A stretch of 64,000 nt of DNA from positions 6,590 to 70,589 of the forward strand of contig CAQPBJ010000007.1 in assembly GCA_948852945.1 (NCBI GenBank). Reading direction: 5' to 3'. Source of the DNA: an uncultured Clostridia bacterium (GTDB lineage Bacteria; Bacillota; Clostridia; TANB77; CAG-508). This document shows, piece by piece, positions 6,337-30,715 of the stretch (its first letter is position 1; every line of letters starts with the position of its first letter). The translations under genes were made by a program, and so were the position numbers. A model generated the notes under the pieces. It did no database searches, had not been told where the DNA came from, and saw only the letters and a list, made by a program, of their open reading frames with translations.

Positions 6337-6390
6337 TGTTCCACAGATAACCTGTTGATAACATGTTGATAATCTGTGGATATTTTTTTG
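6337..6390. promoter_or_regulatory. DnaA-box-like cluster overlapping a terminator-like hairpin
   Basis: TGTTGATAA (6353), TGTTGATAA (6364) and TGTGGATAT (6375) are direct repeats at 11-bp spacing, each 8/9 to TGTGGATAA. TGTTCCACA at 6337 is a fourth weaker box. CCACAGAT/ATCTGTGG also form an 8-bp stem followed by a T run. Confidence 0.35.
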
Positions 6391-8733: not shown

Positions 8734-8825
<92 letters not shown>

Positions 8826-8864
8826 ATGCTAGATATGAAATACTATCTAGCTTTATAATTATAC

Positions 8865-8956
8865 GGAGATTTACCCAAGTGGCTGAAGGGGACAGTTTGC
8901 TAAACTGTTAGGGTTCGTTTAGGGCCGCGAGGGTTCAAATCCCTCAATCTCCGCCA
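8865..8956 (+). tRNA. tRNA-Ser (anticodon GCU), CCA encoded
   Basis: Acceptor GGAGATT/AATCTCC. Anticodon stem ACAGT/ACTGT with loop TTGCTAA. Long variable arm. T arm GAGGG-TTCAAAT-CCCTC. Confidence 0.9.
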
Positions 8957-8957
8957 A

Positions 8958-8990
8958 CAGATAGTATAATAAAGTACTATCTGTTTTTTT
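8958..8990 (+). terminator. rho-independent terminator after the tRNA pair
   Basis: CAGATAGTA (8958-8966) pairs with TACTATCTG (8975-8983), followed by T7. Confidence 0.7.
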
Positions 8991-9628
8991 ATTTTCGGCA
9001 AATAGAATAAATTTCTAAAATAATTTTTAAAAGCGACGAGAATCTAAAAATATAATAAAAAGATAGATAGTGATGTAACTTTATTAAATAATTATAAAAA
9101 ACGAAATATGGCGATTTTAAAGCTTTAAAAAATGATGAAAAATAGTAAATATTTTATATAAAAAATAAATATAAAAAAGAGGCTTTAAAAAATTAAAAAA
9201 TAGATATTAATTATATAATAAAAAAATATATAATATTTTTGTGTATGAATTGTGGAATAAAAAAATATAAATCAAGAAATAAAATAAATTAAAAAATAAA
9301 AATTAGGAACTGTAAAAAAATAAAAAATATTAAAAAATTTAATGTAACATAAAAAGAGGTTGAAAAATAAGGAAAAAAATGAAATATATTACATAAAAAA
9401 TAAATAAATAAAAATAATTTTAAATATTAAAAAAAATAAATAAAAATAAAAAAATATTAAAAAATAATAAATAATAATAAATAATAATAAATAATTAAAA
9501 AAAATAATTATAATTAATCTAATGTAACAGAATAAATTTAATAATAATATGAAAAATTAGTTTAATGAATTTGAACAATATTTTTTTGAAAGATGATTTT
9601 GTTGTAGTTATAATTAATTAGTTTATGT

Positions 9629-9700
9629 TTGTCAAAATATTATATAAAATTAGCATTAAAAAAAGAAAAAGATATGCATATTGTTGTATCAAATTGACTA
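9629..9700 (+). promoter_or_regulatory. degenerate module copy (P0)
   Basis: TTGTCA at 9629-9634 and GACTAAAAAA at 9696, but the spacing is 65 rather than 45-47. No clear upstream box. Confidence 0.25.
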
Positions 9701-9926
9701 AAAAATAGAAATACTTTTTTGCGGAGTGTAGAATTTAGATTTTGGAGAGAAATTTTCTTAAAAGAGAAGATATGAGTTGAGTAATGTGTTTACAGATATA
9801 CAGAATTTAAAAGTAGTATATGTTCATAAGAACATTTTTTTAAATTTATTAAATTAAAATTATTCAATAAAATAAGAAATATTATAAAAAAAGAATGTTA
9901 ATTATACGCCTATAAATTTTAAAAGC

Positions 9927-10036
9927 TTGATATTAGTGGATTATATGTTTTAAAAGAAAGATAATTATTAAAAATAATTGTCAAAAAAGAAGTTCATGAT
10001 TATATGTATAAATATTTAAAGAGGAAGACAAAAAAT
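9927..10036 (+). promoter_or_regulatory. array module P1 (three-box unit with promoter-like core)
   Basis: TTGATA 9927-9932. Exact TTGTCAAAAAAGAAG 9978-9992, with 17 bp to TATATG at 10001-10006. AGACAAAAAA at 10026. Confidence 0.6.
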
Positions 10037-11079
10037 GAGTTTAAAAATATTAAGGGAGAAGTTTATTTGTAAAAGTCTTTATTTTTAAAAATTAGTAAAG
10101 ATGGACGGAATAATGAGAAAATTAAGATGATTTTAATTTTTAGTAAGATATAGTAGTAAATTAAACATAAGCTAAAAATAAAAAAGTTATGATATGTAAT
10201 AGCTATATTGTCTATTAAGCAACATGAAAAGTAGAGTAAAAAGAAAGCTATTATAATAGATATTAGAGAAAGAAAAGAGCTAAAAAATGAATATAAAATT
10301 TGAAAATGTATTAAAGAATAATTTGATATAAAAAGTTATTGAATTTAAAATATTGAAAAATTTATTAAATATAAAAAATATTGAAAAAAATATAGAAAAA
10401 TATTAAAGCAAATAAAAAAATATTGAAGTAAAAATAAAAAATATTAAAATAAAAAACGATAAAAAAAATAAATATAAAAAATAAATTTAATTTATAGGAA
10501 TATAATTATAAAAATTTTCTATAGATGAATAATATTATAAAAATATTTTTTAAAGAAATATCTATGAAGATAAAAAACTAAAAATAAATCTAGATAAAAT
10601 GAAAAAATTTTTTGAATAAGAAAAAGATTTGTTATTATTTATAAAAATTTAAAAATAAAATGAAGAAAAAACTTGTTTAGAAAATTTTAAGTAAAAATAA
10701 ATATCGGTAATACTTATTATTTATTTTTATTTTTTATTAATATTATAAAATGAAAATAAATGGATAAAAAATATATTCAAAAATATTAAAAAAATATAAT
10801 AATGGAATATAATATTACAAGTTTTCAATTATTATTTTAGAATATGAAAGTATTTTAAAATTAAAACTAACCATGAAAAAAGATGTATAAGGAGTTAATA
10901 AATTTGCAGTTTAATGTAAACATTTTTTTTCATTAAAAATGAGCGGTAATCGATAGAGAATTTTTTAAATTGCGATAGTATTCGTATTTTTTTTTATTTT
11001 ATAAATATATTTTTAGCAAAAATAGTAAAAATGTTCACTAAGTATACATAATACAGTATAATATAAAACTTTAAAAATG

Positions 11080-11189
11080 TTGATATAAAAGGATAGTATG
11101 CAATGCAAATACTTTATAAACAAAAAAGTATTGTCAAAAAAGAAGTATAGAGATATTTAAAAATATTTATTTGTGATAGACAAAAAAAT
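11080..11189 (+). promoter_or_regulatory. array module P2
   Basis: TTGATA 11080-11085. Exact 15-mer 11131-11145, with 17 bp to TATTTA at 11154-11159. AGACAAAAAAA at 11178. Confidence 0.6.
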
Positions 11190-12087
11190 GATATAAATAA
11201 TAACAATTATGATAAAAAAGTAAGTAAGTAATGAAAATGAGTTAACATAAAAGACAAAAAGATGGTAAGGAGCACCTATGATTTTAAAGTATAAAATTTG
11301 TAAGTTGTAATATAAAAAACAATGGAATAATACATAAAAAAGTAGTTTTTTTAAAATAAATTAAAATATTTATTTTTTATTATTAAATATAAAATAAAAG
11401 TAAATAAATTCTAAAAAATATTAAAAATTATTTATATTTTTTAGAAAGGAATGAATAAATAATTTTAAAAATAAGAAAATATAAAAAAATATTATTGTTT
11501 ATTTTAAATAATATTGAAAAAATATTTGAATAGAATCAAATATTTATTAAAAATAGTAGAGTAATTAATTTTTTCGGTAGATTAAAATTAATTATTTATT
11601 GTATAATCATTTTTATTATTTTATCGATTTATTAATATTAACTTTTTTAAAGAAAATTAATAGAAATTTTTTAGGAAGTTGATTGCTAACTTTATAATTA
11701 TCTAAATTAATTATAATTTAGATTTTATTTTCTAATTAATATTAAAAAAATAAAATAAGATCTAAAAAAATAAAGATAAATATTTAAAAAATAAAATTAA
11801 TTATTCAAAAATAAATTAAAAAATTAAGAATACTATTATGGAAATTATAATTATCATCAGGAAATTTATAAAGATAAAGATGAAGTTTAGGCAGCTTATT
11901 ATTACTAATATTTTATAAAAAAGAGAAAAGATCGGAAGATGTTTTTTTATAAAAGTAATGTTTTTAAATTTGAGTTGAAATTTGAATATTATCATTTTTT
12001 ATAAATTATATATCTATTATAGGTAAGTTTTTTTATGTTAACAACATAAAAAATACTGGTATTTTATTATATTATAGCTTAAATATC

Positions 12088-12194
12088 TTGATATAAGCTA
12101 AGTATATCTGATACATTAAAATAAAAAGTAACGGTATTTGTCAAAAAAGAAGGTTGCAAATATAGTGAAAAAATTTAAAAATGAGACAAAAAAA
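12088..12194 (+). promoter_or_regulatory. array module P3
   Basis: TTGATA 12088-12093. Exact 15-mer 12138-12152, with 17 bp to TATAGT at 12161-12166. AGACAAAAAAA at 12184. Confidence 0.6.
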
Positions 12195-12889
12195 GGCTAG
12201 CTTTTGTATAAAATTTTAAGTAAAGATGTTAAGCTAGTTACTTATTAGACAAAGTATGAAGGAAGAGATACGTAGAGATTATATGAATTTTTAAGATACA
12301 AATTGTATAAATAAATAGCAAAGTTTTTATTATATTACTATTAAAACTATACATGAAAAAATATACAAAAAAAGAATTTAAACATTAAAATAATATCAAA
12401 TAATTATTAAAAAATAAAATGAAAATTAGTTATAAATTTTATAATTTATATAAAAAGATGTATAAATAAAATAATTATATAAAAATAAGTAAAAAAGATT
12501 AGAACAAAATATGTATTTATTGTTATTTAAATTCTTTTTTTATTTCGAATATTTAAAATAATAAAAAATACTAATTAATTTATTAGAAATAATAAAAAAA
12601 TCTTAGAAAATTAATAATAACAAACTATTGAATAGTAATGTTTTTTATAGTATGAACTAGTGAAGAAAGATATGACAAATTAGCATAAAACAAATGATGT
12701 TTGTATAGTTTGATACACAGTTTATGACATTTAAATTTGTGATTTTTCTAGTGGATAAATTATGGAAAAATGTGAAGAAATTTAGTAAATTTAATTTTTT
12801 TGAGGTTTATTCTAATAAAAAAACATAATTATGTTAACTATCGAAAAATATTTCCTTCTTTAAAAGTAGGATACTAATTGATGTAATAC

Positions 12890-12999
12890 TTGATAATAGA
12901 GAATTATACATAATATTTAGGTATGAGGTTTTAAAAAACTTTGTCAAAAAAGAAGATTTAAAATATTAAGTAATTATTTTAGGTAGAAGACAAAAAAAC
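12890..12999 (+). promoter_or_regulatory. array module P4
   Basis: TTGATA 12890-12895. Exact 15-mer 12941-12955, with 17 bp to TATTAA at 12964-12969. AGACAAAAAAA at 12988. Confidence 0.6.
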
Positions 13000-13210
13000 A
13001 GGGATTATTAGCATATTTTGTTATTAAAAAATGAAAAAATTAATTTTTAGCTGGCTACAAGACAAAGCCTTAAATGGCTTATTTACGGTTTTTTATAAAA
13101 AAGACATATGATATCATAGCCAAATTATGTATAGAAAAATATATTTCTATACTAAAACTTAGAGATAAATAATGTTTTTTGCATTTAATTATAATGCATT
13201 AAAAAAATAA

Positions 13211-13390
13211 GAAAATTATTAAAAAAATTGGAGATATATAATCATATATTTTTATTTTTTTTGAAAATTAATGAGAAAATCAGAGATATATAATCATATA
13301 TTTCTATTTTTTGAAAATTAATTAGAAAATTAGAGATATATAAATTATATATTTCTATTTTTTTGAAAATTAATTAAAAAATAGAAATAA
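13211..13390. repeat. tandem repeat, ~51 bp x ~3.5, each copy with an imperfect dyad
   Basis: GAAAATTAAT(G/T)AGAAAAT(C/T)AGAGATATATAAT(C/T)ATATATTT(C/T)TATTTTTT repeats head to tail. The internal dyad is AGA(G/A)ATATAT-N4-ATATAT(T/C)TCT. Confidence 0.8.
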
Positions 13391-13864
13391 AAACATATAA
13401 AAATTTATAGTATTTATGAATTTAATTTTTGTATTTCATTAAAAAGTGTAGAATGTTTTATAGAGAATATATAATTTTATGAAATTTAAGTTTATATTAA
13501 TTGGCTGATTAAAAAATTATATATATATAAATATTGAAAGTTGTGTTCAGGTAAAAAAATTTATCTGGATTTTTTTATTATTTAATTATTTTTTTTGATT
13601 TTTTTTATTATTTATTATTTTTTTTTGAATTAATTAATATTTTTTAAATTAATAATAATTTTATTATTAAATCTCAGAAAAAATTATAAAAAATAAATTT
13701 TAAAAAACTGTGGATTGTAACATAAAAAAAATTAAAAAATGTACAAATATTTTATACACAAAACAAATGTTTATAGTGTTTAAAAATAAAATTTAAAAGT
13801 TTGATTTTTAGGATTAAACTGATAAGATTTTTTATAAAAAGTGTTTGAAAAAATGAAAAATTTA

Positions 13865-13985
13865 CTTCTTTTTTTGTCAAAGATATATTTTATTTCGAAT
13901 AAATGAAAAACTACTTTTTAGACAAATAAAAAAATATGTTAAAAATTATTAAATTTTTATTCAGTTGCTATATAGTACTATTTCC
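13865..13985 (-). promoter_or_regulatory. array module M1 (minus strand)
   Basis: Read on the minus strand: GGGAAATA (rc of 13979-13985), 60 bp, TTGTCTAAAAAGTAG (rc of 13911-13925), 45 bp, GACAAAAAAAGAAG (rc of 13865-13878). Confidence 0.5.
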
Positions 13986-14579
13986 CAAGGTTTTCACGAG
14001 TTTGTGTGCAATTTCATATTCTTTTTTTACTATTTTTTGTCTTTTAAAATTTCTTTTTTTGATTTAAGAAAGATAAAAAATTAAAAATGAAAATTAAAAA
14101 AAAGTTGAATAATAAGATTTTGATTATAAATTGTAAAATGAATATTTATTATAAAAACAAAAAAACAGAAAAAGTTGTTAAAAATTTGATTATTATGTAT
14201 TTGAAATTAGGTTACATAAAAAACTTTATATGCTAAAAGATAATAAGAAATTTAAAAAAATTTTTGTAACAATTAATGAAAAATAAATATGAAAAAAATA
14301 AAATTTATTGTTTTTTGCCTTTTTGAATTTTTTTTATTTTTTTATTATTTTTTAATAATTTTAATTAATTATTTTTTGTAATATTCTTGTTTTATTCGAA
14401 TTAATTTATAATATTAAATATATTATATATATTATATTGATAAAAATTAAATAGAGAAATTTAATCGAAAAAATTCTATTTTAATTTTTCTTTTAAGATT
14501 CGTTAATTTTTTTATTGTCTTATATTAGGATAATTTTTTTATAAATTTGCCTCATAAAGATTAAAGAATAGTACATTAT

Positions 14580-14691
14580 TGTCAAAACGTTTACTATTTT
14601 TTTTATAAGTTTTTTATTTTATATTTTAGCAAACATTTTTGAAAGTAAGTTTTAAAAATATAGAATAATATTTGCTGTTCCTTGTATTTCC
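14580..14691 (-). promoter_or_regulatory. array module M2
   Basis: Minus strand: GGAAATA (14685-14691), 59 bp, TTGCTA (14627-14632), 47 bp, GACAA (14580-14583). Confidence 0.45.
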
Positions 14692-15404
14692 TAGACTTTA
14701 AGGAAATGAGAATTTTATGAATGGTAAAAAATAATTTAAAATTTAAGTAAAAAAATATAGAAAATATTTAAAAAATAATTTTGAAATTGATAGTGTTAAA
14801 AAATAAAAAAATTTATCAGTTAAATAAAAAAATTTTTATTTTAGAAGAAATTTTAAAAAATAAAAATTTTAAAAAATAAAATATCTAGTTAATATAAATT
14901 AAATATGAATTAAATATGAAGACTTAATATATTCTATTATAATAATATAAGATTAAGGTGATATTTTTTATATTTAAATCATTAAATAGGGTGTGTAATA
15001 TTAAAAATATTTAGTAAAAAGCCTTTTTTTGACTTCATAGCTAAAAAGCTTATTTACAGACTTTAAAAAATAATTATTGATAAATTTATTTCCTAGTTGT
15101 AGAGGTAGTTTGAAAGAGTTACATTTAGATATATTATGAATGAGTTTTTATTAAATAAAAAAATATGATGAAAAGTATAATAATTCTTAAAAAATAAAAA
15201 ATATTTATTTTGATTTATTATTATTTTTTAAGATTATTTTTTGGAAAAAAAGTTGTAATACAAAAAAATACTGAAATATTTAAAGAATATTAAAAAAATA
15301 TAGAAAAATAAAAATTTTTTTATTTAAGTATTATATTGTGTTTTAGTATGAATTATATGTTGTCTAAACTAAAAAAAGTTCAAGAATTTAGTAAATTAGT
15401 TAAA

Positions 15405-15524
15405 TAGAATAATTGTCTTTGATAAATTAAATTTTAATATATTTGAATGGTTCTTTTTTGACAAATAAATTTTTAAAAAATAGTACTATATTAAATATGT
15501 AAGAATGAATTTTTAAGCATTTCC
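15405..15524 (-). promoter_or_regulatory. array module M3 (best minus-strand promoter-like copy)
   Basis: Minus strand: GGAAATG (15518-15524), 60 bp, TTGTCAAAAAAGAAC (15450-15464), 17 bp, TATATT (15436-15441). AGACAA is 45 bp downstream (15414-15417). Confidence 0.55.
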
Positions 15525-16099
15525 GCATAGTTCAAAGTTTTTAAAATTAAAAAATATATTAAATTAAATAAGTTTTTATTTTTAAATTTATATTTATAAT
15601 AACTATATTTATTATAAAAGAAAGATAAAAAAATAATAAATTTTTATTATTTAAATGAATTTAAATTTGAATAGAGGGGATAGAATTTTAAAATATTAAA
15701 TATAAATTTTAAATTAATGATTAAACAATAACTTTTAATTTTAAATATTTTTTTATTTGACAATATAAAATTTTTATCACTTTTTATAAAATTTGTTAAT
15801 TATACTATTTGAAGTGTAATATTTTTTATTAAAATAGAGTAGTTTTACCAAAAAAAAGAGTATTTTGATGCTAGTTTACAGCTATAAATAGAAAAAAATA
15901 AGAAATATTAATTTTTAATGATTTATGAATGTAATATATAAAGATTTTGTATTTAATATTAATAAATAGATATTAAAAAGGTAGAAAGGTAATTATATAA
16001 ATTAATAAAAAATTTTTGCAATTAAGATTTTTTATTTTGTCTTATTTTAATTTTATAAGAAAGATTTTTGATTTTATTGAGTAAATTTTTATAAAGTTT

Positions 16100-16211
16100 T
16101 GACTTTAAAATAAGTATTAAAAATGTTTTTTTATATATTTTCTTTTTTACAAAGATTTTTTTTAGATAGAATTAATATAAAGATATGATACGAGCTAATA
16201 TGCTTTATTCC
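16100..16211 (-). promoter_or_regulatory. array module M4
   Basis: Minus strand: GGAATAA (16205-16211), 59 bp, TTGTAAAAAAGAAAATATATAAAAA (from 16152 downward), 47 bp, GTCAAAA (16100-16103). Confidence 0.45.
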
Positions 16212-17496
16212 TATGTTTTTTAGATTTACTTATGAAAAATAAAATGGATAATTTACAATTTTGGTCATAAAATTTTTATAAAAAAATGTGAATTTTATAA
16301 AATTAAAAATTTATATTATATTATTGAATTTATTATTTAGGTTAAAAAAATTTTTTGAAATTAGTATTGGTTTGAAAATTTTAAAAAAGTTATTGATTAA
16401 AAAGAAAAAAGTTTTTATTTAAAGACTAATATTTTAAAAAATGAATAAATGGATACTGAGATATCTAACAGATTAATATATTAATTTTTTTTGTAATTTG
16501 ATATCTTAAAAATTGAATAAAAATTGTATGTGAAATTTTATGACTATTAATTTTTAAAAATATATTTTTTCTGTAAGCCTTGAAAGGAGCAGTTTTTAAT
16601 TTTTGACGTTTTTTTATTTGATAATTTGTATACATAAAATATTAGGGATTATTTTTTAATATTTATTTATATATTTTTTTAGAAGGAAAAATAGGTATTA
16701 CTTTTGTAATTTAATATATTTTTTTATAATAATTAAGGTATTATGTGATTGTATTTTTTTAAGATTATATATTATATAAGTGATAATTTATGAAAATTAC
16801 TTTGTCATTAAATAATTTATTTTATTATTATTTTTACTTATTGGTTAAATATTAGATAGTAATTAGTGATAAAAGATATGTTTTCTGTCATATTGTATAA
16901 AAAGTTAATGCTGGAAGTCCTTGATTTATAAGGAACGTATCAATTACAACAAAAAATGTGATAAATAAACTAAAATATTTTAACATATTTTCAATTATTT
17001 TATATTTATTATAATATTTGAATTAGCATTTTATTATTATATATATTATTTTTAAATATTTATTTATTAAAAAATATAATAATAGAGATAAAATATATAA
17101 AGAGAGGATAGCAAAATTGAATGTTAGAAAGTGTAATAAAAGGACTTAATATATATTAATAATATTTTATAGACTTATTTTTAATATAAATATAGCAGTT
17201 AATGAACTACTTGATACTCTAAGGATATAAATTTTTACTTAATTAATTTTAAAAATATATGTAATAAAAAGAATTTAATTAATTTATTAATGATTTTTTT
17301 TAAGAATATCTGTTTGTATATTTTTATATTTAAATTGTAATGTAAATGCTTTTTATTATTAATGATTCTTATTGATATAATAGAAGTCTATTTTTTATTA
17401 ATCATAAACTTAAAATATACTATATTTTATTTTGTCATAGTTTTAATTTTATGCATATATAAATGAAAATATCAAAAAAAATCTTAATTTTCTAAT

Positions 17497-17607
17497 TGTC
17501 ATTTAAAAATAGATTTTTTTGAAGTAATGAAAATACTTTTTTGGCAAAGAAATTCAAAAAGAAGATATAAAAATTAAATATGTAATTTCTATATACTATG
17601 TATTTCC
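17497..17607 (-). promoter_or_regulatory. array module M5
   Basis: Minus strand: TCGATACAACTTAGGAAATA (17601-17620), 60 bp, TTGCCAAAAAAGTAT (from 17547), 45 bp, GACAA (17497-17500). Confidence 0.5.
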
Positions 17608-18181
17608 TAAGTTGTATCGATTTTTATTTTTTAAAAAAATATTTAAATTTAATATTTTAATATTTTTATTTTTGGGTTTTTATGTACTCTAAGTGATGTA
17701 TTTTGATATCGAAATTAATGAAATCTTTCTTTTAGAGTCAAAATTTTTTTTAAGAAAAGTACCTTAAAACTAAAAGACTAAAAAATTGTGTAAAGTTTTT
17801 AATTTTGTTATAACTTTTTTTGCTTATTAAGAAAAGTTATTATTTTTACCGTATATTATTATAAAAATAGAACAGACGTGGAAAGCAGAGAATAGACTGT
17901 AATATATAAGGGGTTTTTTTGATCTTTTATATTTTTTAATATTTTTTAAAATTAAAATTAATTTTTTTAATTTATTTAAATACAAAAAAATTAAAAAAGT
18001 GGGAAATTATTTGTAATAATTGAGTTTTTTAGGTATAAAAGAAGTGATAGTTTTTATTGATTAAAAAAATAAAATCTTATAAGAGTAGATTAATAATATA
18101 AATATTTTTTAAAAGTATTGTCAATGATTATTTTTTTTAGAGAAAAAAATTATTTCTTAAAAGAAATAATTTTAAGTATTT

Positions 18182-18293
18182 TGTCAAATTATTATTCATT
18201 ATTTATATATTTTTATATATTTTCTTTTTTACAATTAATTTTTTATAGAGTATTTAGAAAAATATATTAATATCTTGTAATTCCTTTATATCC
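18182..18293 (-). promoter_or_regulatory. array module M6
   Basis: Minus strand: GGATATA (18287-18293), 59 bp, TTGTAAAAAAGAAAATATATAAAAA (from 18234, same subfamily as M4), 47 bp, GACAA (18182-18185). Confidence 0.45.
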
Positions 18294-18927
18294 TATGTTT
18301 TGTTGATTTAAATTAAAATAGAAATCATAAAAAAATATCAAATTTAGAACAAAAAATTCTATTTATTTAGTAGTGAGATAAATTAAGATAAAAATTATTT
18401 TTTTTATAAAAATTTGAATCTTGAGACTTAAAAATATATTTTTTTATGTTTTTAAAGATGATATTTATGAAAAAAATTTAAAGTTGCTAAAAAAGAAGAG
18501 TATAAATAAATAAATTCTTAAATATTAAAGTTAGAAGTATAAAAATAATAGTTATTTTATTGAGGTAATATTGTGTCAAATAAAATTAAGATTATTTTAA
18601 AAAATAATTTGAAAGCAATGTGCTTGAAATGCATGATACTGTAAGAGTTTGATTTTTCTACTATTTTATTTGAAATAAATTTATATTTTTTAATATTTAT
18701 TTTAAAAACAGATGTTTTGAAAGAATGATTAAAAATTATTAATATTTTGTAAAGAGTTATTTTGAAGTTTTATGGTCGAATTTATACTAGTAAGTGAATT
18801 ATTATTATAAATTTACTAATAAGATAAATAATTATTAAAAATTAAAAAATTAATGTTTTTAGATTGTCTTTTATAATTAAGGTTTTAATTATAATTGAAA
18901 ATATTTAAAAAGCTTAATTTTACAAGT

Positions 18928-19038
18928 TGTCTTTTTTTGGAGCATTTTTTTAAAGAACAATTATTACTTTTTTGCCAAATAAATATTTTAAGTCTAATAT
19001 ATGCAGATATATTAGATTTACTAAAAATCAGTATTTCC
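18928..19038 (-). promoter_or_regulatory. array module M7
   Basis: Minus strand: GGGAAATA (19032-19038), 60 bp, TTGGCAAAAAAGTAA (from 18978), 45 bp, AGACAA (18928-18931). Confidence 0.5.
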
Positions 19039-19633
19039 CTTGGTTTTAGAGAATTGTTTTTTTAAAATATTATTAATATTTTGATTATTTTAAATTTTTT
19101 TATTTGGATATTGATTTTGATAGAAAATACTTTTTATATTAGATTTTTTTATTATAATAGTGTAGAGGCAATTTAATATACGATATAAATATTTTAGAAA
19201 ACATATTGACTAAAAAAAATATAAAAATTTTAATAGGAATAAAAAAATTATTTGACAATTTTTAAAATAATTTAAATTGGCTTTATGTTGCTTTGAATTG
19301 ATGAATTTAGAATAAAAATTTTAATTTTTGGTGATTATTTTTATAAGGGCTTTATTATATGTAATATAATATGTTAGAAATGATTTTTTCTGATTTTTTT
19401 TAATTTTTAATTAATTTAATTAATTAAATTATATTTTTTATATATTTATTTTAATTTTTTTTATTAAATAATTAGATAAATTCATGTAATAATATATTTT
19501 TGCTTTTTAATGTATATATTCTTTTGAATAGATGATCTAAAAATAAATTATTAATTTGAGAAATTATTTTTGTCAGTATTTAATTTAGTATAAAAAAATT
19601 TTGACCGTTTATTTTGAGTTTTAAACGGTTTTT

Positions 19634-19760
19634 TGTCATTAGGTTGAGTAGTTTTATTATTAATTTTTTTTTTGGAATTTTTGCAACTAATTTTAAAAAT
19701 GAAAAAAGTGGTTAATAAATAAAACGGGATTTCACTGGTGTTTCCCATGTTATATCGATT
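19634..19760 (-). promoter_or_regulatory. array module M8
   Basis: Minus strand: TCGATATAACATGGGAAACA (19739-19760), 59 bp, TTGCAA (19681-19686), 47 bp, GACAAAAAA (19634-19637). Confidence 0.4.
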
Positions 19761-20078
19761 TCGGAAAAATCACAAATTACTGAAAATGTTTTTTAGACTT
19801 AAAATTTTTTGATTTTATTTAGTGAAAAATAATTAAAAAAATTTTAAAAAAATAATTTAAAATAGTGTGTATAAAAAAATAAATAATTAGAAATTTTATA
19901 TTTATAAGAACAATGAATATATTTAATTTTTAAATTGATTTAAAAATTAGAGCAATAGACAATATTTAAATATTTATTTATTATTTTTTTTATACAAATT
20001 TTATAAAAAATCACAATAATGTCTGTAATACTAATTTGTATATATTTTTTTAATATTTTAATAAAATATATAATAAAT

Positions 20079-20113
20079 AAAAAAATAAAGTGAATATGTT
20101 GATTATTCACTTT
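20079..20113 (-). terminator. terminator downstream of the activase-fusion gene
   Basis: AAAGTGAATA (20087-20096) pairs with TATTCACTTT (20104-20113). The A run at 20079-20085 gives a U tract on the minus strand. Confidence 0.55.
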
Positions 20114-20142
20114 ATTTTTAAAAGTTAAAAAATATTAATTTA

Positions 20143-23100
20143 TTATTTTTTATTATTTTTTTGTTCGGTTTTTAAGTTGTCTTTTGCAACTGTCATTAAT
20201 AATTTTAATCTATTTGTTTGGTTTGATTCACTTGCTCCAGGATCATAATCTACTGGTGTTATATTAGCATTTGGATAAGTTTCTCTAATTGTTTTTATTA
20301 CACCTTTACCAACTATATGATTTGGAAGACAAGCAAATGGTTGAACGCAAACGATGTTTGGAATATTATGTTCTATATATTCTACCATTTCAGCAGTTAA
20401 GAACCAGCCTTCACCAGTTTGATTTCCTATAGATAATATATCTTTTACTTTATTTTCTAAGTGCCAGATATCACAAGGAGGAAGATAGTTTTTCTTTGAA
20501 TTTGATAGTGCAATTTTTAAATCTTTTTCGAAAATATCTATTAACTTGATGGCTACTTTAAAAATTGCAGCTTTTGTTTTATCTATTTTTAATAGTTTAT
20601 TGAATGTTATTTTATGTGTAGCTATAAATTTTATAAATCCCATAAAATCTGGTAATACTACTTCTGCGCCTTCTTTTTCTAAAACATTTGCTACAAAGTT
20701 ATTTCCAAAAGGATGATATTTTATTAATACTTCTCCAACTATACCAACTTTAGGCTTTTCAATATTATTATTTATTTCTATTTTTTCAAAATCTTCAACT
20801 ATATCGTAAATGCTTTGTTTAAATTGTTTACTATTAGATTTTTCAACTAACTTTTTACATTTTTCAAGCCATTCATTATATAGTTTTTCAGTTTCACCTT
20901 TATTTATTTCATATGCTCGATTTTTCATTAATAATTTTTGTAGTAGGTCACCATAAGTGACGCTTTTTAATAGTCTTTCTGCTAGGCCAAGTGTAATTTT
21001 GAATCCAGACATTTTTTCCATACCAACTACATTGAATGATATAACAGGTACTTGAGAAAATCCAGCATCTTTTAGAGCTTTTCTTATAAAACCTATATAA
21101 TTTGTGGCTCTACATCCACCACCTGTTTGAGACATTATTAATGCAGTTTTGTTAGGATCATACTTTCCAGATTCTAAGGCTTCTATCATTTGCCCAGTAG
21201 TTAAAATAGATGGATAACAAGCATCATTATTTACATATTTCAATCCTGTTTCAACTGTATTTGGTGTACATTCTCTTAATAATTCTACATTGTATCCACA
21301 AGATTTAACTGCTGTTTCTATTAATTCAAAGTGGATTGGAGCCATTTGAGGAATTAAAATAGTATAATCCTTTTTCATTTCTTTAGTAAATTCTATAGGA
21401 TGAAGTTCATAATCTCCTACGGATTTACATTCCTCACAGTTTTGTCTTTCTGACTTTTCCTTAATTTTTTTGTTCATACTAGCTAATAATGAACGTATAC
21501 GTATTCTAACAGCACCTAAGTTATTAACTTCATCAATTTTAATTAATGTGTACATGTTATCATAACTTTTTAATATTTCTTCTACTTGATCTGTTGTTAC
21601 TGCGTCTACACCACAGCCAAAAGAATTTAACTGTATTAGTTCTAAGTTATCGTGTTGACCTGTAAATTCTGCAGCTGCATATAGTCTTGCATGATATACC
21701 CATTGGTCTACGACTCTAATTGGTCTTTTAGCTTCAGTTTTTTTAGAAATACTGTCTTCAGAAAGTACACATAAGCCTAAGCTTGTTATTAATGTGTCGA
21801 TGCCATGATTTACTTCTGGATCTACATGATATGGTCTACCAGCAAGTACAATGCCGCGTAGGTCATTTTTATTCATATAGTCTAATATTTCTTGACCTTT
21901 TTTATCTACATCGTTTTTAAAGTTTTGGTATTCTTCTTCAGCTTTTTTAGCAGCTTCTAATAGTTCCTTTTTTGTAAAATTATATTCTTTAAATTCATCA
22001 CGCTCTAAAATGACCTGTACTAGATTTTTTGCCTCGAAAGGTAAAAATGTATTGATGAACTTAATATTTTCGGATTTTAGGCCTTCTACGTTGTTTTTAA
22101 GTACTTCTGAATATGATATTACTATTGGACAGTTATAATGATTGTTTGCTTTTTGATATTCTTTTCTTGAATATGGTATACAAGGATAGAATATTGTTTT
22201 AATGCCTTGTTCAAGTAAGTTCATTATGTGTCCATGACTTAATTTAGCTGGGTAACATACAGATTCAGATGGCATTGATTCCATTCCTTTTTCATAGGTT
22301 TTTCTAGTACTTTTTTCTGAAAGAATAACTCTAAATCCTAAGTTCGTTAGGAAAGTGAACCAGAATGGATAATCCTCATACATATTTAAAACTCTAGGAA
22401 TACCTATTGTTCCACGATATGCTTTTTCTTCTGCTAGAGGTTCATAGCCAAATAATCTTTCAAATTTATATTTGTATATATTTGGTAGATTCTTAGCCTC
22501 TGTAATTCCGCCACTTCCTTTTTCACAGCGATTTCCAGATATAAAAGATTTATTATCATTGAATTTATTTATAGTTAGAAGACAATTGTTTTCACATTTT
22601 CCACAACGTACTTGAGTTGTTTTAATATTCAAATTGTTTAATTCTTCTGTTTTAAGCAATGTTGAAGTGTATTCCATATCTAAGTTTGCTTCAAATTGTT
22701 CTTTAGAAAGTAAGGCAACTCCATAGGCACCCATTAATCCAGAGATAGATGGTCTTATTACATTTTGTCCTACTAGAAGTTCAAAGCTTCTTAAAACTGC
22801 ATCATTGTAGAAAGTTCCACCTTGTACAACTATATGTTTTCCAAGTGTTTTCATATCGCGGACTTTCATAACTTTTTGAATAGCATTTTTTACTACGGAG
22901 AAGGAAAGTCCAGCTGAAATATCTCCAACACTATAACCTTCTTTTTGAGCTTGTTTAATTTTAGAATTCATAAAAACTGTACATCTTGAACCTAAGTCTA
23001 CAGGCGCTTTTGATTCAATTGCTGCTTTAACGAATTCTTCTATAGATAGGCCTAAACTTTTTGCGAAAGTTTCAATAAAAGAACCACATCCAGAAGAGCA

Positions 23101-28585: not shown

Positions 28586-29377
28586 CTATATTTTTATTAA
28601 TTTACTTGGAAAATCTCTTGAAGCAACGCTTACTGAAATATCTTTTGAATTGATATTATTATTTTTAAGTTCATCAGTTACCGTTTTTAAGGCTAATTCA
28701 GGAAAGTTATTTTCTTTACTTAAGTGCCCTAACATTGCATGTTTTAAGCCATATTTTGAGGCTAATTCAGTTATTGTTTTACCAGAAGATTCATTTGACA
28801 AATGACCTATAGGACTAAGAATACGTTGTTTTAGTTGAAATGGATATCTACTGTATTTTAAGATATCTGGATCATAATTTGCTTCTAGTAATATGAAAGA
28901 AGAATCTTTTAATTTTGAAATTAAGGTATTATCCATGTGACCAATATCAGTTGCAATGCTAATTTTCTTATCATCGTGGAAAATATTAAATCCACATGGG
29001 TTGGCAGCATCATGAGGAATGCTAAATGGAAGAATTTCTAAATCTTTTATTTTAAATTTTTTATTTATTGTAAAGATGTTTTGATTACTATCATCAATTT
29101 TTGCTTTTTGAGCTTGCATATTATTTAGAGTCTCTAAATTGCAATATATTGGGGTATTATATTTTTTTGATATACTTCCGATATTTCTAACATGATCAGA
29201 GTGTTCGTGAGTTACTAAAATTGCATCAATATCGCTAAGTGCAACATTAAAAGACGCAAGAGCAGTCTCGATTTTTTTTTGACTTACTCCTGCATCTACT
29301 AATATTTTTGTTTCATTTGTTTCTACAAATAAACAATTTCCTGTGCTTCCACTATATAAACTACAAAAATTAAACAT
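28586..29377 (-). CDS. MBL-fold metallo-hydrolase (YycJ/WalJ-like)
   Basis: 263 aa with the HEHSDH zinc motif. N-terminus FCSLYSGSTGNC is typical of YycJ-like proteins. Confidence 0.8.
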   Translation of the reverse strand: MFNFCSLYSGSTGNCLFVETNETKILVDAGVSQKKIETALASFNVALSDIDAILVTHEHSDHVRNIGSISKKYNTPIYCNLETLNNMQAQKAKIDDSNQNIFTINKKFKIKDLEILPFSIPHDAANPCGFNIFHDDKKISIATDIGHMDNTLISKLKDSSFILLEANYDPDILKYSRYPFQLKQRILSPIGHLSNESSGKTITELASKYGLKHAMLGHLSKENNFPELALKTVTDELKNNNINSKDISVSVASRDFPSKLIKI

Positions 29378-29389
29378 CTTTTTTCTCCA

Positions 29390-30715
29390 TTATTCTTCTG
29401 TGTATTTTACTCTTTCTATTTTTGCACCTAATTTTCTGAATTTTTCTTCTATGTTTTCATAGCCTCTATCTATGTGATGTAAATTAAATACTTCTGTTGT
29501 ACCACTAGCGCTAGTTCCAGCAATTATTAATGCTGCACCAGCACGTAAATCAGTAGCATTTACAGGAGCTCCATATAAATATTCTACGCCTTCAAACACT
29601 GCTGTTTTTCCAGATGTAGTTATTTTTGCGCCCATTTTATTTAATTCTTGAGTATATTGAAATCTTGATTCCCAAATGCTTTCATTTATAATGCTTGTTC
29701 CTGAAGACATAGCTAGACATACACCCATTTGAGATTGTAAGTCTGTAGGAAATCCTGGGTATGGAAGTGTTTTTACATTTGCTTTTGTAGTTCTTTTTGA
29801 CCACCAAACACGTACGTGATCTCCATTAGCATCAACATTTCCACCCATTTCTAATATTTTAGCTATAATTGGTTCTAAATGTTTTGTAATACAGTTGTGA
29901 ATAGTTATATCTCCTTTTGATGCAATAGCAGCTAACATAAATGTTCCTGCTTCAATTTGGTCTGGAACAATTGAATATGTTGCATTTCCTTTTAATTCTT
30001 TAACACCATTTATTTTAATAACATCTGTACCTGCTCCTCTGATGTCGGCTCCCATTGTATTTAAGAAGTTTGCTAAATCTACTATATGTGGTTCTTTGGC
30101 AGCATTGTCAATAGTTGTAGTTCCTTCTGCTAGTACACTGGCTAACATTATATTCATAGTTGCACCAACAGATACGATATCCATGTATATAGAGCTAGCT
30201 TTTAATTTGTCGCATGTTGCTGTTATATTTCCACTTGATACATCAACATGTGCACCAAGTGATTCAAATCCTTTTATATGTTGATCGATTGGTCTTGGAC
30301 CTAAATTACAACCACCTGGAAGACCAACTTCTGCTCTTCCACATCTACCCAATAAAGAACCTATTAAGTAGTATGATGCTCTAAATTTTCTAGTAAGTTC
30401 TAATGAAGCAGTTGAAGAAGCAATTTTTCTAGAATCAATTTGGACTGTGTGTCTATTTATCCAAGTTACTTTTACTCCTAAACTTTCTAATATTTCACAA
30501 TATGTTTTTACATCACTAATATTAGGTAAGTTTTCTATTGTGCATATACCATTTATTAATATTGTAGCTGGAATGATAGCAACGGCAGCATTTTTTGCGC
30601 CACTAATTTTTACATCTCCACGTAATGGAGTAGGTCCTGTTATAACTAATTTTTCCATTTTCATACCCCCAAAATTGATATGGACCTCTAAATACTGTAA
30701 TACTTGAAAAGCCAA
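29390..30715 (-). CDS. murA: UDP-N-acetylglucosamine 1-carboxyvinyltransferase MurA
   Basis: EPSP-synthase-fold protein with ..ISGAKNAA.. near the N-terminus. The likely true start is ATG at 30658 (MEKLVITG..), behind GGGGG. Confidence 0.9.
   Translation of the reverse strand: MAFQVLQYLEVHINFGGMKMEKLVITGPTPLRGDVKISGAKNAAVAIIPATILINGICTIENLPNISDVKTYCEILESLGVKVTWINRHTVQIDSRKIASSTASLELTRKFRASYYLIGSLLGRCGRAEVGLPGGCNLGPRPIDQHIKGFESLGAHVDVSSGNITATCDKLKASSIYMDIVSVGATMNIMLASVLAEGTTTIDNAAKEPHIVDLANFLNTMGADIRGAGTDVIKINGVKELKGNATYSIVPDQIEAGTFMLAAIASKGDITIHNCITKHLEPIIAKILEMGGNVDANGDHVRVWWSKRTTKANVKTLPYPGFPTDLQSQMGVCLAMSSGTSIINESIWESRFQYTQELNKMGAKITTSGKTAVFEGVEYLYGAPVNATDLRAGAALIIAGTSASGTTEVFNLHHIDRGYENIEEKFRKLGAKIERVKYTEE

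Follow-up and report, generated by a model that had tools for sequence, protein, structure and literature searches.

Multi-site nucleoprotein platforms such as the phage attP intasome and enhanceosome-like assemblies occupy about 150-250 bp of AT-rich DNA, where the spacing and helical phase of short boxes outweigh the intervening sequence, and they occur one per element or gene, beside a recombinase or a regulated gene. Arrays of sibling small RNAs (LhrC1-5 of Listeria; the csRNAs of streptococci) consist of units of 100-300 bp that keep a seed and a covarying terminator stem-loop. The 'promoter islands' of E. coli are AT-rich, carry many -35- and -10-like words, bind RNA polymerase and silencers, and yield little RNA (PMC3661553, PMC7054387); Forrest et al. 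2022 report that RNA polymerase promiscuity dictates xenogeneic silencing strategies (PMC8894471). Here we describe an array of 8 minus-strand modules and 4 plus-strand relatives, each of about 175 bp with four short boxes, within a 64-kb window (the whole stretch of DNA analysed) from an uncultured gut Clostridia bacterium. The modules are genuine and under selection, and promoters, RNA structure, ORFs and mobile DNA all fail to account for them. With a confidence that stops a little short of even, we suggest that they are DNA-level assembly platforms for one or more sequence-specific DNA-binding proteins, and that the array organises, marks or silences the tract in which it lies. The main fact beyond an earlier note on this DNA is the setting of the modules: an 11-kb gene desert by oriC and parAB, with the array conserved in a sister species.

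The gene-free spacer and its modules

The array is contained in a gene-free spacer of 11.2 kb with a G+C content of about 14% (13-16% along the spacer versus 23-31% in the flanks), 10-20 kb from oriC and adjoining parAB. No ORF of at least 100 aa occurs between 8957 and 20142, and from 12 to 20 kb the longest is 65 aa. The sequence is supported by three assemblies: the second is 99.9% identical, and the third differs, in the 1.77 kb that it covers, by one substitution and one homopolymer indel only. The right edge is the stop codon of a convergent gene for a 1429-aa activase, and the hairpin directly past it is probably the right-border terminator, missing from the scan output because its stem has too few G-C pairs. 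With terminators at both borders, the spacer would not be a read-through 3' region. The features of the spacer are as follows.

8957..20142, no strand: ORF-free spacer ('gene desert') from tRNA-Ser(GCT) to the activase stop codon, the whole array inside
8956..8985, plus: intrinsic terminator from the terminator scan, at the end of the tRNA-Ser transcription unit, left border
20078..20113, minus: hairpin AAAGTGAATA/TATTCACTTT followed by a T-run, read from the sequence
13698..13723, minus: central element ATGTTACAATCCACAGTTTTTTAAAA, where module orientation flips; kept at the equivalent place in the sister species (L180:4957-4982)
13211..13389, plus: 52-bp tandem repeat of 3.5 copies beside the orientation switch, each unit with an imperfect palindrome, AGAGATATATAATCATATATTTCT

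The minus-strand modules follow one plan, in which GGAAATA is followed after 59-61 bp by TTGNCAAAAAAG, after a further 47-49 bp by G(A/T)CAA, and after 62-64 bp more by GACAA, and two subtypes, A and B, alternate along the block.

19570..19758, minus: M8, subtype A; upstream GGGAAAC 19746; box 1 TTGCAAAAAT 19686; box 2 GACAA 19637; box 3 GACAA 19574; R1 profile 51.7 bits; ortholog at L180:1004
18864..19050, minus: M7, subtype B; upstream box 19039; box 1 TTGGCAAAAAAG 18978; box 2 18931; box 3 18868
18118..18305, minus: M6, subtype A; upstream GGATAT 18293; box 1 TTGTAAAAAAG 18234; box 2 18185; box 3 18122
17432..17620, minus: M5, subtype B; TCGATACAA 17620; upstream box 17607; box 1 TTGCCAAAAAAG 17547; box 2 17500; box 3 17436; top profile score, 54.1 bits
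16037..16225, minus: M4, subtype A; upstream GGAATA 16211; box 1 TTGTAAAAAAG 16152; box 2 variant GTCAA 16103; box 3 16041
15360..15536, minus: M3, subtype B; upstream GCGGAAAT 15524; box 1 TTGTCAAAAAAG 15464; box 2 15417; box 3 15364; ortholog at L180:3116, with TATGCGGAAAT and the first box in common
14515..14703, minus: M2, subtype A; upstream box 14691; box 1 TTGCTAAAAT 14632; box 2 14583; box 3 14519
13874..13998, minus: M1, subtype B; upstream box 13986; box 1 TTGTCTAAAAAG 13925; box 2 GACAAAAAAAG 13878; box 3 absent
15020..15100, minus: partial extra module; GGAAATA 15093 and, 60 bp on, AAGTCAAAAAAAG 15033; downstream boxes absent
9927..10037, plus: P1, plus-type; TTGATA 9927; TTGTCAAAAAAGAAG 9978; AGACAAAAAA 10027
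11080..11258, plus: P2, plus-type; TTGATA 11080; box 1 11131; box 2 11179; box 3 11253 (74 bp from box 2)
12088..12253, plus: P3, plus-type; TTGATA 12088; box 1 12138; box 2 12185; box 3 12248 (63 bp from box 2)
12890..13066, plus: P4, plus-type; TTGATA 12890; box 1 12941; box 2 12989; box 3 13061 (72 bp from box 2)

The eight minus-strand box 1 starts and the intervals between them (707, 832, 688, 1395, 687, 744 and 708 bp) are exactly those of the earlier note, and the longer identical word that it reported in M4 and M6 is present as a common 25-mer. Its distance from the upstream box to box 1 also stands, the GG and TTG lying 59-61 bp apart in 8/8 modules; the step from TTG to G(A/T)CAA, there given as 45-47 bp, measures 47-49 bp start to start. 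Box 3 follows box 2 after 62-64 bp in six of the eight, with M3 at 53 bp (about one helical turn under the usual value) and M1 having none. Neither this third GACAA box nor the alternation of the two subtypes appeared in the earlier note. The word T(C/T)GATA(C/T)AA, said to stand often before GGAAATA, does so in just two of the eight minus copies (17620 and 19758). Of two proposed decayed copies, the one at 15.03-15.09 kb exists as a partial module that both profiles miss, and the one near 16.9 kb is detected by neither profile. What had been called a ~700-bp period is the spacing between modules and not a tandem repeat: a lag scan gives no peak at about 700 bp, and the ~175-bp module is the only alignable unit. 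The label '-35-like hexamers' is likewise misleading, as the conserved unit of box 1 spans 12-15 bp (TTGNCAAAAAAGWAG) and its core, G-N-CAA with an A-run, is common to boxes 2 and 3.

The module pattern is beyond chance. Judged by 1000 dinucleotide-preserving shuffles, the minus strand of 13801-19800 should hold GGAAAY 1.1 times and GACAA 1.8 times, but it holds them 7 and 16 times; pairs of upstream box and box 1 at 59-61 bp numbered 5, and pairs of box 1 and GACAA at 47-49 bp numbered 6, each against about 0.01-0.02 expected. None of the 1000 shuffles matched these word and pair counts, and a control that randomised positions while holding word counts gave mean pair numbers of 0.09-0.2. Across three assemblies and two species, the upstream spacing is 59-61 bp in 20/20 minus-type modules, with 46-50 bp from TTG to G[AT]CAA and 62-64 bp for the next step, and a gap-free alignment of all 14 modules spans 96 columns.

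Where spacings vary, they differ by about 10 or 20 bp, that is by whole helical turns. The upstream box lies 40 or 60 bp from box 1, and the proposed contrast of 40 bp in plus-strand with 60 bp in minus-strand copies holds for two of the four plus-strand copies; the division into plus and minus subfamilies with spacers differing by whole turns is borne out (~20 bp upstream, ~10 bp between GACAA boxes). From box 2 to box 3 most modules have 62-64 bp, M3 has 53 bp (its ortholog 62), and 6/7 plus-type modules with a third box have 72-74 bp, P3 being the exception at 63 bp. Intermediate values between these classes were not seen in the modules compared. The box 1-box 2 distance of ~48 bp corresponds to a non-integral number of turns, so the geometry is not a simple same-face arrangement.

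Modules examined for promoter and RNA signals

An array of sigma-A promoters was considered and rejected, the -10 element being not above background. A milder version sees in each module a weak or regulated promoter that has an activator site upstream and drives a short, unstructured, A-rich non-coding transcript, so that the array would consist of 'sibling' small-RNA genes or serve as an RNA polymerase reservoir or sponge; we consider this unlikely. Box 1 does contain a TTGNCA hexamer, and in 8/11 TTGTCA-type modules TAT stands exactly 17 bp past it, like the first half of a -10, which keeps the weak-promoter reading alive. M3 (TTGTCA-17-TATATT) and P3 (TTGTCA-17-TATAGT) score 10/12 in the promoter scan, M3 being, as the earlier note had it, the only minus module with a good -10 for its first box. 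Moreover, in the left half, and weakly in the right, a block's sense strand is richer in A than the opposite strand, and a hairpin followed by a U-run lies between boxes 2 and 3 in M5, M6 and M8. On AT-rich DNA, RNA polymerase from B. subtilis is reportedly less promiscuous than that from E. coli; if so, G/C-containing -35 words could decide promoter use in such DNA.

However, TAnnnT occurs 16-18 bp past box 1 in only 1/14 minus-type and 2/8 plus-type modules of the two species (background 0.18-0.21), and allowing every box as a -35, on both strands and in three species, leaves the -10 at background. Where a -10 is expected, subtype A and the C/G variants of subtype B show CTTYAA or TTAATR, promoter-like sites number 147 against 148.5 in shuffles, and the 12-15 bp conserved in box 1 go far beyond the needs of a -35 hexamer. 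No RNA structure was found in the modules: folding z-scores run from -1.8 to +0.7, RNAalifold returns no consensus pairs, Rfam has no match, and the M8 hairpin is lost in its ortholog; 10-bp indels that keep helical phase would in any case be meaningless for an RNA. Invariant spacing around free spacer sequence supports protein binding over a promoter role, and the preference for the former in the earlier note agrees with this and with the background-level -10.

Conservation in a sister species

In a sister species (L180/L208), the activase has 96% amino-acid and 88% nucleotide identity, which places silent sites close to saturation. Its array keeps the box sequences, the spacings, the subtype order and both orientation blocks, whereas the rest of the spacer aligns no better than unrelated AT-rich DNA (56%), and between the boxes identity is 0.40 versus 0.34 expected at random. 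Within the sister species, the modules are depleted of polymorphism in the one strain pair compared, though the evidence is patchy: they make up 20% of the spacer and hold 18 of 197 differences, with 2 differences in 291 bp of boxes. Subtype-specific box variants are common to both species, so the modules are not homogenised by concerted evolution. Judged from these comparisons, the modules are kept by selection. A profile search that also covered 38 related loci places the family in two closely related species only, and other relatives carry ordinary genes or different AT-rich repeats at this locus, which leaves room for a dispensable or fast-turnover role.

Ordinary genes in relatives also suit the view that the modules are relics, in which an ancestral pair of small genes with regulatory regions was amplified in tandem, the coding parts decayed to mutational AT equilibrium and the boxes now have no function. 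Unit sizes of 0.7-1.0 kb would fit small genes, alternating subtypes are as in an amplified two-gene unit, some spacers hold plain satellites (e.g. a 205-bp repeat in L075), and a supernumerary copy near 16.9 kb, which neither profile detects, seems decayed. We hold this to be quite improbable. AT-biased mutation erases G/C-containing boxes first, yet here they persist at exact spacing amid randomised surroundings, in paralogs that predate the species split, with polymorphism depleted in the modules of the strain pair. No conserved ORF or pseudogene remnant was found in the spacer, tblastn with 196 ORFs of relatives' spacer genes revealed no protein-level remnant, and dead DNA, which bacteria normally delete, would here have persisted over at least 10 kb in two species.

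It is far less probable still that a non-autonomous mobile element or a satellite gave rise to the modules by spreading within AT-rich DNA through transposition, unequal crossing-over or gene conversion. Both orientations are present, two module pairs (families D12 and D13) match at a lag of 2082-2083 bp, and the window has about three modules more than the sister species, consistent with block duplication. But the copies are old and diverged (paralogous modules average 0.48 identity in the core block), only the boxes are alike and not the whole unit, and the 2082-bp lag alignment, at 58%, is barely above its controls (56%). The profile search found no further copy in the remaining 52 kb of the window, nor in the 38 related loci, matches to phages, plasmids or viral contigs are absent, and the box variants common to both species indicate that copies are not being homogenised.

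Proposed protein-binding platforms and known systems

The best explanation, on the evidence of sequence and spacing, is that the modules are platforms for bound protein. One recognition element, G-(A/T/N)-CAA with an A-run, present as three direct repeats (box 1, TTGNCAAAAAAG, then boxes 2 and 3), would be read behind a distinct upstream box, (A/G)GGAAATA, at fixed distances of 60, 48 and 63 bp, and only variants that shift these by whole helical turns would have survived. Some 12-13 of these platforms, arranged as two blocks of opposite orientation with two subtypes in alternation, would then span an ultra-AT-rich desert that is probably transcriptionally insulated, 10-20 kb from oriC and beside parAB, and the array may organise, mark or silence this origin-proximal tract. 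Chromosome organisation or segregation, or origin capture during sporulation, is a possible context.

The array matches no known element, and of the consensus sequences tested (parS, NBS, the DnaA box and the Spo0A 0A box) none fits. It resembles parS arrays bound by ParB in its multiple copies of a putative protein-binding site a few to tens of kb from the origin, beside parA-parB. Canonical parS is absent from the window and from every relative's parB locus examined, so a centromere role is at least vacant locally; however, parS is a single 16-bp palindrome, and the modules are ~175-bp composites of non-palindromic direct repeats. GGGAAAT/GGGAAACA resembles Noc and ParB half-sites, a half-site-like match only, and the full Noc and ParB sites tested are absent.

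The attP and enhanceosome-like platforms are alike in length, AT-richness, spaced boxes and the lack of a coding or RNA-fold signal, but the modules stand in 12-13 copies in a gene-free tract, with no integrase, core-type inverted repeats or target gene. What defines promoter islands is that promoter-like sites are denser than expected (PMC3661553, PMC7054387), whereas here their density equals the composition-matched expectation and the signal is a specific, ordered set of boxes at exact spacing. With sibling small-RNA arrays the modules have in common tandem copies, a -35-like box with a regulator site a fixed distance upstream and, in some copies, a hairpin followed by a U-run; they differ in having no conserved fold, no consistent -10, and 500-800 bp of DNA free of constraint from one module to the next. 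Eukaryotic centromeric satellites with higher-order repeats are likewise ultra-AT-rich and gene-free, with A-B-A-B alternation, growth by block duplication and poor short-read assembly. Satellite monomers, however, are similar from end to end and homogenised within a species, whereas the modules keep four short boxes per unit and their copies evolve independently.

A gene desert beside origin and partition genes

The tract that holds the modules is a terminator-insulated, ultra-AT-rich gene desert beside the origin and partition genes. The window starts ~1.8 kb from dnaA, and a contig with an identical DUF4446 protein gives the gene order dnaA-rpmH-rnpA-yidD-yidC-jag-mnmE-mnmG-rsmG-parA-parB-DUF4446, with mnmE, mnmG, ParA, ParB and DUF4446 confirmed by Pfam in the window itself. 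Between the tRNA-Ser genes that follow DUF4446 and the convergent activase gene (8957-20142) no ORF reaches 100 aa, the longest within 12-20 kb having 65 aa, and G+C is 13-16% in this spacer versus 23-31% in its flanks. The activase-like protein has two BcrAD/BadFG ATPase-type regions as well as DUF2229 (2-hydroxyacyl-CoA dehydratase activase-related), and directly after its stop codon we read a hairpin and then a T-run in the sequence. Across the clade this protein is strongly conserved (at least 8000 homologs at E <= 1e-100).

Features of the spacer and its surroundings (window coordinates)
6353-6383, minus strand: predicted DnaA boxes, TTATCAACA twice and ATATCCACA once, 11 bp apart, just upstream of parA
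8734-8956: two tRNA-Ser genes after DUF4446, with a strong terminator at their end
9978, 11131, 12138 and 12941, plus strand: plus-type modules P1-P4, with common TTGTCAAAAAAGAAG and then AGACAAAAAAA 47-49 bp on
13211-13389: 52-bp tandem repeat, 3.5 copies, 87% matches, where module orientation flips
13698-13723: central element ATGTTACAATCCACAGTTTTTTAAAA (ATGTTACAAT-N-CACAGTTTTTTAAAA), kept at the switch point of the sister species (contig L180, 4957-4982)
20143-24432, minus strand, convergent to the tRNA-Ser side: activase-like protein of 1429 aa, BcrAD/BadFG and DUF2229

A misassembly of the tract was ruled out by the agreement of two further assemblies. Over 22.9 kb the contig of MAG GCA_949482225.1 (L009) matches at 99.9% identity, and the 10 kb of spacer that it covers contain only four differences; a third assembly, from another sample, matches the 1.77 kb adjoining the activase bar one substitution and one homopolymer indel, both of them outside modules. 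Elsewhere in the window, 11 of the 22 differences from L009 fall within 0.85 kb (29297-30140, in the gene at 29390-30715), a cluster more suggestive of an import by recombination than of even divergence. A-tract helical periodicity over the spacer is weak (~2 sd) and seen in the left half only.

Composition and conservation of the modules

In the minus-type modules an upstream box, with the consensus AAAC(A/T)T(A/G)GGAAATA, is followed after 59-61 bp by box 1 (TTGNCAAAAAAG), 47-49 bp later by box 2 (G(A/T)CAA) and after a further 62-64 bp by box 3 (GACAA). The eight minus-strand box starts and seven intervals of the earlier note are all exact against the sequence, but the module is longer than it had been drawn there, box 3 being the additional element. 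A T(C/T)GATA(C/T)AA word, said often to precede the upstream word, does so in two of the eight minus copies only, and of two proposed decayed copies one, at 15.03-15.09 kb, is a genuine half-module with upstream box and box 1 60 bp apart, whereas the other, near 16.9 kb, was recovered by no profile. The ~700-bp period did not hold up, as a lag scan gave no peak at ~700 bp and the inter-module DNA does not align; without unit-wide periodicity, the figure describes the spacing of modules and not a tandem repeat. The regular box spacing, on the other hand, goes beyond what composition gives. On the minus strand at 13801-19800 we counted 7 GGAAAY words against 1.1 expected, 16 GACAA words against 1.8 and 5-6 fixed-distance pairs against ~0.01-0.02, and 0 of 1000 dinucleotide-preserving shuffles reached any observed value, which rules out a chance origin of the box pattern. 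Moreover, when positions were randomised with word counts kept, the mean number of fixed-distance pairs was at most 0.2.

On the plus strand a second GACAA lies 63-74 bp further on in three of the four modules, and TTGATA stands 50-51 bp upstream in all four. The modules form two opposed blocks, one of four modules that run rightward from the tRNA side, the other of eight or nine that run leftward from the activase side, which meet near 13.2-13.8 kb at the 52-bp tandem repeat. Each unit of that repeat has 10-11-bp imperfect inverted arms about a short core (AGAGATATAT-AATC-ATATATTTCT), a shape resembling a recombinase core site. A TGTAACA motif (reverse complement TGTTACA) recurs, with a central copy and others at 9339-9352 and 9518-9532.

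Two subtypes can be told apart among the minus-strand modules, A (M2, M4, M6 and M8) with TTGCAA or TTGTAA and 49 bp to box 2, and B (M1, M3, M5 and M7) with TTGNCAAAAAAG and 47 bp, and they alternate strictly A-B-A-B in both species (window 13925-19686; L180 1004-4710). This alternation, together with the observation that the extra copy near 16.9 kb, apparently decayed, would place B beside B, hints that the working unit is an A+B pair of ~1.4 kb. From box 2 to box 3 we measured 53 bp in M3 versus 62 in its ortholog, 62-64 bp in the other minus-type modules and P3, and 72-74 bp in six plus-type modules; the upstream box is 60 bp away in minus-type modules and 40 bp in two plus-type modules. 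Because these variants step by about one or two helical turns and distances otherwise vary by only ±1 bp, the spacing bears the signature of a helical-phase constraint, which is relevant to proteins on DNA and not to RNA or peptide.

Much of the evidence for selection comes from a sister species, represented by contigs L180 and L208. L180 was found via a metagenome pattern scan that was otherwise unspecific (at least 118 unrelated single hits); it opens with 504 bp of the activase 3' end (88.6% identical), after which come 8.4 kb at ~15% GC. L208, reached via protein search and contig look-up, belongs to this second species too (97.7% identical to L180), and its 10 kb downstream of the activase contain no called gene. 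Between the sister species and the window the activase is 96% identical as protein and 88% as DNA, and given ~506 nucleotide but ~57 amino-acid differences we estimate from the counts that silent sites must be close to saturation. The convergent layout is kept, with six minus-type modules adjoining the activase and five or more of plus type beyond. The 14 minus-type modules of the two species align gap-free over 96 columns with GG, TTG and the A-run invariant, and the three spacings (59-61, 46-50 and 62-64 bp) are found in 20 modules drawn from three assemblies. Between the boxes, cross-species identity averages 0.40 versus 0.34 expected for random sequence of the same composition, and the rest of each unit aligns at 56%, as do unrelated AT-rich segments. 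Common variants pair M8 with L180:1004 (TTGCAAAAAT) and M3 with L180:3116 (TATGCGGAAAT); in the block identity matrix there are only weak one-to-one signals, M8 being slightly closer to L180:3948 than to L180:1004. Modules make up 20% of the spacer in two sister-species strains and carry 18 of the 197 differences between these strains, 2 of them in the 291 bp of boxes. Since paralogous modules average 0.48 identity and subtype-specific box variants are common to both species, the copies are old and are not being homogenised. AT-biased mutation should erase G/C-containing words first, yet these words are kept with exact spacing, which argues for purifying selection on each module. What our comparison shows, in at least two species, is a family of ~175-bp composite non-coding elements that are evidently under purifying selection.

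Promoter, RNA, protein and repeat readings

The main rival reading is that the modules are weak or regulated promoters for unstructured transcripts. A -35-like hexamer (TTGTCA, TTGCCA, TTGGCA or TTGCAA) starts box 1 in all modules, and TAT lies exactly 17 bp past the hexamer in 8 of the 11 TTGTCA-type modules, although the final T of a -10 is usually missing from these. A TAnnnT -10 element 16-18 bp downstream of box 1 is present in 2/8 plus-type and 1/14 minus-type modules against a background of 0.18-0.21, and when every box was taken as a -35, on either strand and in three species, the -10 was no better than background. The sigma-A promoter reading is not favoured, as a -10 with the invariant A2 and T6 occurs at background frequency, though the TAT at 17 bp leaves some doubt. 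A promoter island was rejected because site density is not above the composition-matched shuffle expectation (147 promoter-like sites versus 148.5 +/- 12.1).

A structured non-coding RNA was also rejected, as there is no Rfam family, fold stability or consensus structure to go with it. At the gathering score Rfam gave two tRNAs only, with nothing in the spacer at E up to 1, folding z-scores of ten modules ranged from -1.84 to +0.70 versus shuffles, RNAalifold on 14 modules from the two species returned 0 pairs, and the M8 ortholog lacks the neat hairpin that follows box 2 in M8. In the search for small proteins the sole cross-species peptide matches were translations of box 1 itself. The 'MSKK...TKK' peptide that would begin at box 1 as a TTG start was dismissed, since subtype A reads TTG TAA with an immediate stop, there is no ribosome-binding site and the frame is not kept, as was the 65-aa ORF at 19551-19748, which starts in the M8 upstream box and in the sister species stops after 5 codons (aligned sequence read by eye). 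It could also be that the modules are a relic of amplified genes, and the finding that none of 196 ORFs from relatives' spacers had a tblastn match has to be read with the caveat that at 14% GC old remnants may escape detection; the conservation pattern makes this origin the less likely one.

Several classes of repeat were considered and set aside. TRF found no array of period above 68 bp in the spacer (maximum period 500), and alignment at a lag of 2082 bp gave 58% identity versus 56% for controls; a true 700-bp tandem (satellite) repeat was rejected, there being no lag peak near 700 bp and no whole-length alignment of units. An origin from a MITE or IS does not fit a mean paralog identity of 0.48 with no copy outside the spacer in the 64-kb window or the related loci, and no terminal inverted repeats or target-site duplications stood out in the module alignments. 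Neither was a CRISPR array (repeats of 23-50 bp with spacers of like size) supported, as the repeat tools returned no such family and modules are 0.7-1.1 kb apart, and phage, plasmid or viral origin gave no match.

Distribution among relatives and comparison with known systems

Scanning species-representative genomes with the activase protein gave 80 loci, in 18 of which the synteny activase - spacer - tRNA-Ser - DUF4446 - parB is found with a spacer of 0.26-7.9 kb. At least four further assembled relatives have ultra-AT-rich ORF-free spacers at this locus, several of them more AT-rich than that of the window (L014, 7.0 kb at 9% GC; L032, 4.2 kb at 12%; L079 and L088, 9-10%), and in other relatives the spacer holds ordinary genes. 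With nhmmer, a module profile picked up no copy beyond the two species in any of the 80 genome-collection loci, and a sequence-only model built from 14 modules (R1), which recovers the expected copies in both species, found nothing further in the rest of the window and 38 other related loci. In L014 (activase 82% identical) the spacer at 14190-21220 contains 17 GACAA words on one strand, with four pairs 61-62 bp apart that recur every ~950 bp, each with a GCAA or GTCAA word ~50 bp upstream. These words all point from the tRNA side to the activase, unlike the two opposed blocks of the window, and the pairs may be a remote analogue of the modules. TTAGAGA(A/T)TATATA words, similar to the 52-bp repeat unit of the window, precede the GACAA modules in L014. 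The spacer of L075 (14270-17241, minus strand) is a true ~205-bp tandem satellite at ~7% GC (unit ...AAATAAATAATGGAAAAATAAACAATAAATAATTTTAAATAAATTA...), and that of L079 has repeated words of its own, CATGCGCAATAT and AAATCTACTG. Many contigs stop, in 5-16% GC DNA, no more than a few hundred bases from the activase stop codon, among them those of relatives in the 90-91% and 86-88% identity classes, and all contigs with the DUF4446 protein end just after DUF4446 (breaks at the DUF4446/tRNA-Ser side or the activase stop in L001-L008, L010-L013, L019, L024, L053, L209, L211-L213 and L217). As contigs end at both its borders, the tract is a systematic assembly gap, and since most short-read assemblies break there such elements are systematically absent from genome catalogues. 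Long non-coding DNA is generally considered to be nearly absent from bacterial chromosomes, and the literature that we searched has no account of such a tract; here, 11 kb beside the replication origin and partition genes are gene-free and kept in two species.

Four known binding sites were compared with the modules, and each consensus is absent from their spacer. The 16-bp parS palindrome TGTTNCACGTGAAACA has no site at two or fewer mismatches anywhere in the 64-kb window, and GTTNCACGTGNAAC is absent from all 217 fetched loci of the clade, including those with parB (L001-L008, L023, L027, L032, L039, L050, L052, L058, L063, L066, L069, L087 and L088) and the parB genes themselves, where many Firmicutes carry a parS. 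For the 14-bp Noc palindrome ATTTCCCGGGAAAT there are only two 3-mismatch matches, both outside the spacer and at chance level, and the upstream box of the module resembles one half-site only. DnaA boxes (TTATCCACA-like) form no cluster in the spacer, where three scattered 1-mismatch boxes lie at 12750, 13752 and 19866; the stretch at 6353-6383, by its sequence, is a small DnaA-box cluster outside oriC. The SpoIIID site, which we take to contain GACAA, resembles the GACAA boxes of the modules, as presumably does the GGTCAAA heptad of CtsR to the boxes, CtsR needing a tandem heptad that is absent here. In the Spo0A 0A box, whose core is TGTCGAA, G2, C4 and G5 make base contacts, and a G5A change lowers affinity ~10-fold (PMC3485338). 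Box 1 cores (TGTCAAA, TGCCAAA, TGGCAAA and TGCAAAA) always lack this G5, TGTCAAA being the G5A variant, and TGTCGAA occurs nowhere in the spacer.

Of the known families compared here, the modules fit none. Our preferred, though tentative, reading is that each module serves as the assembly platform for a putative sequence-specific protein, with the separate GGAAATA box and three directly repeated G-N-CAA elements, each with an A-run, kept in a constant helical register, and the array may organise, mark or silence the spacer tract. Box order and helical phase are the only readable rule of these composite elements. If a protein does assemble on them, they would represent a novel type of chromosomal cis-element and offer a way into origin-region organisation in uncultured gut Clostridia. 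At present we can only speculate, and think it rather improbable, that the array corresponds, in a bacterium, to a regional centromere or organising centre whose modules recruit a dedicated protein. Such a centre would consist of phased nucleoprotein modules spread over an ultra-AT-rich domain without genes close to the origin, in a clade where no canonical parS was found beside parAB, and through its protein the origin region would be marked, condensed or anchored, as in segregation or forespore capture.
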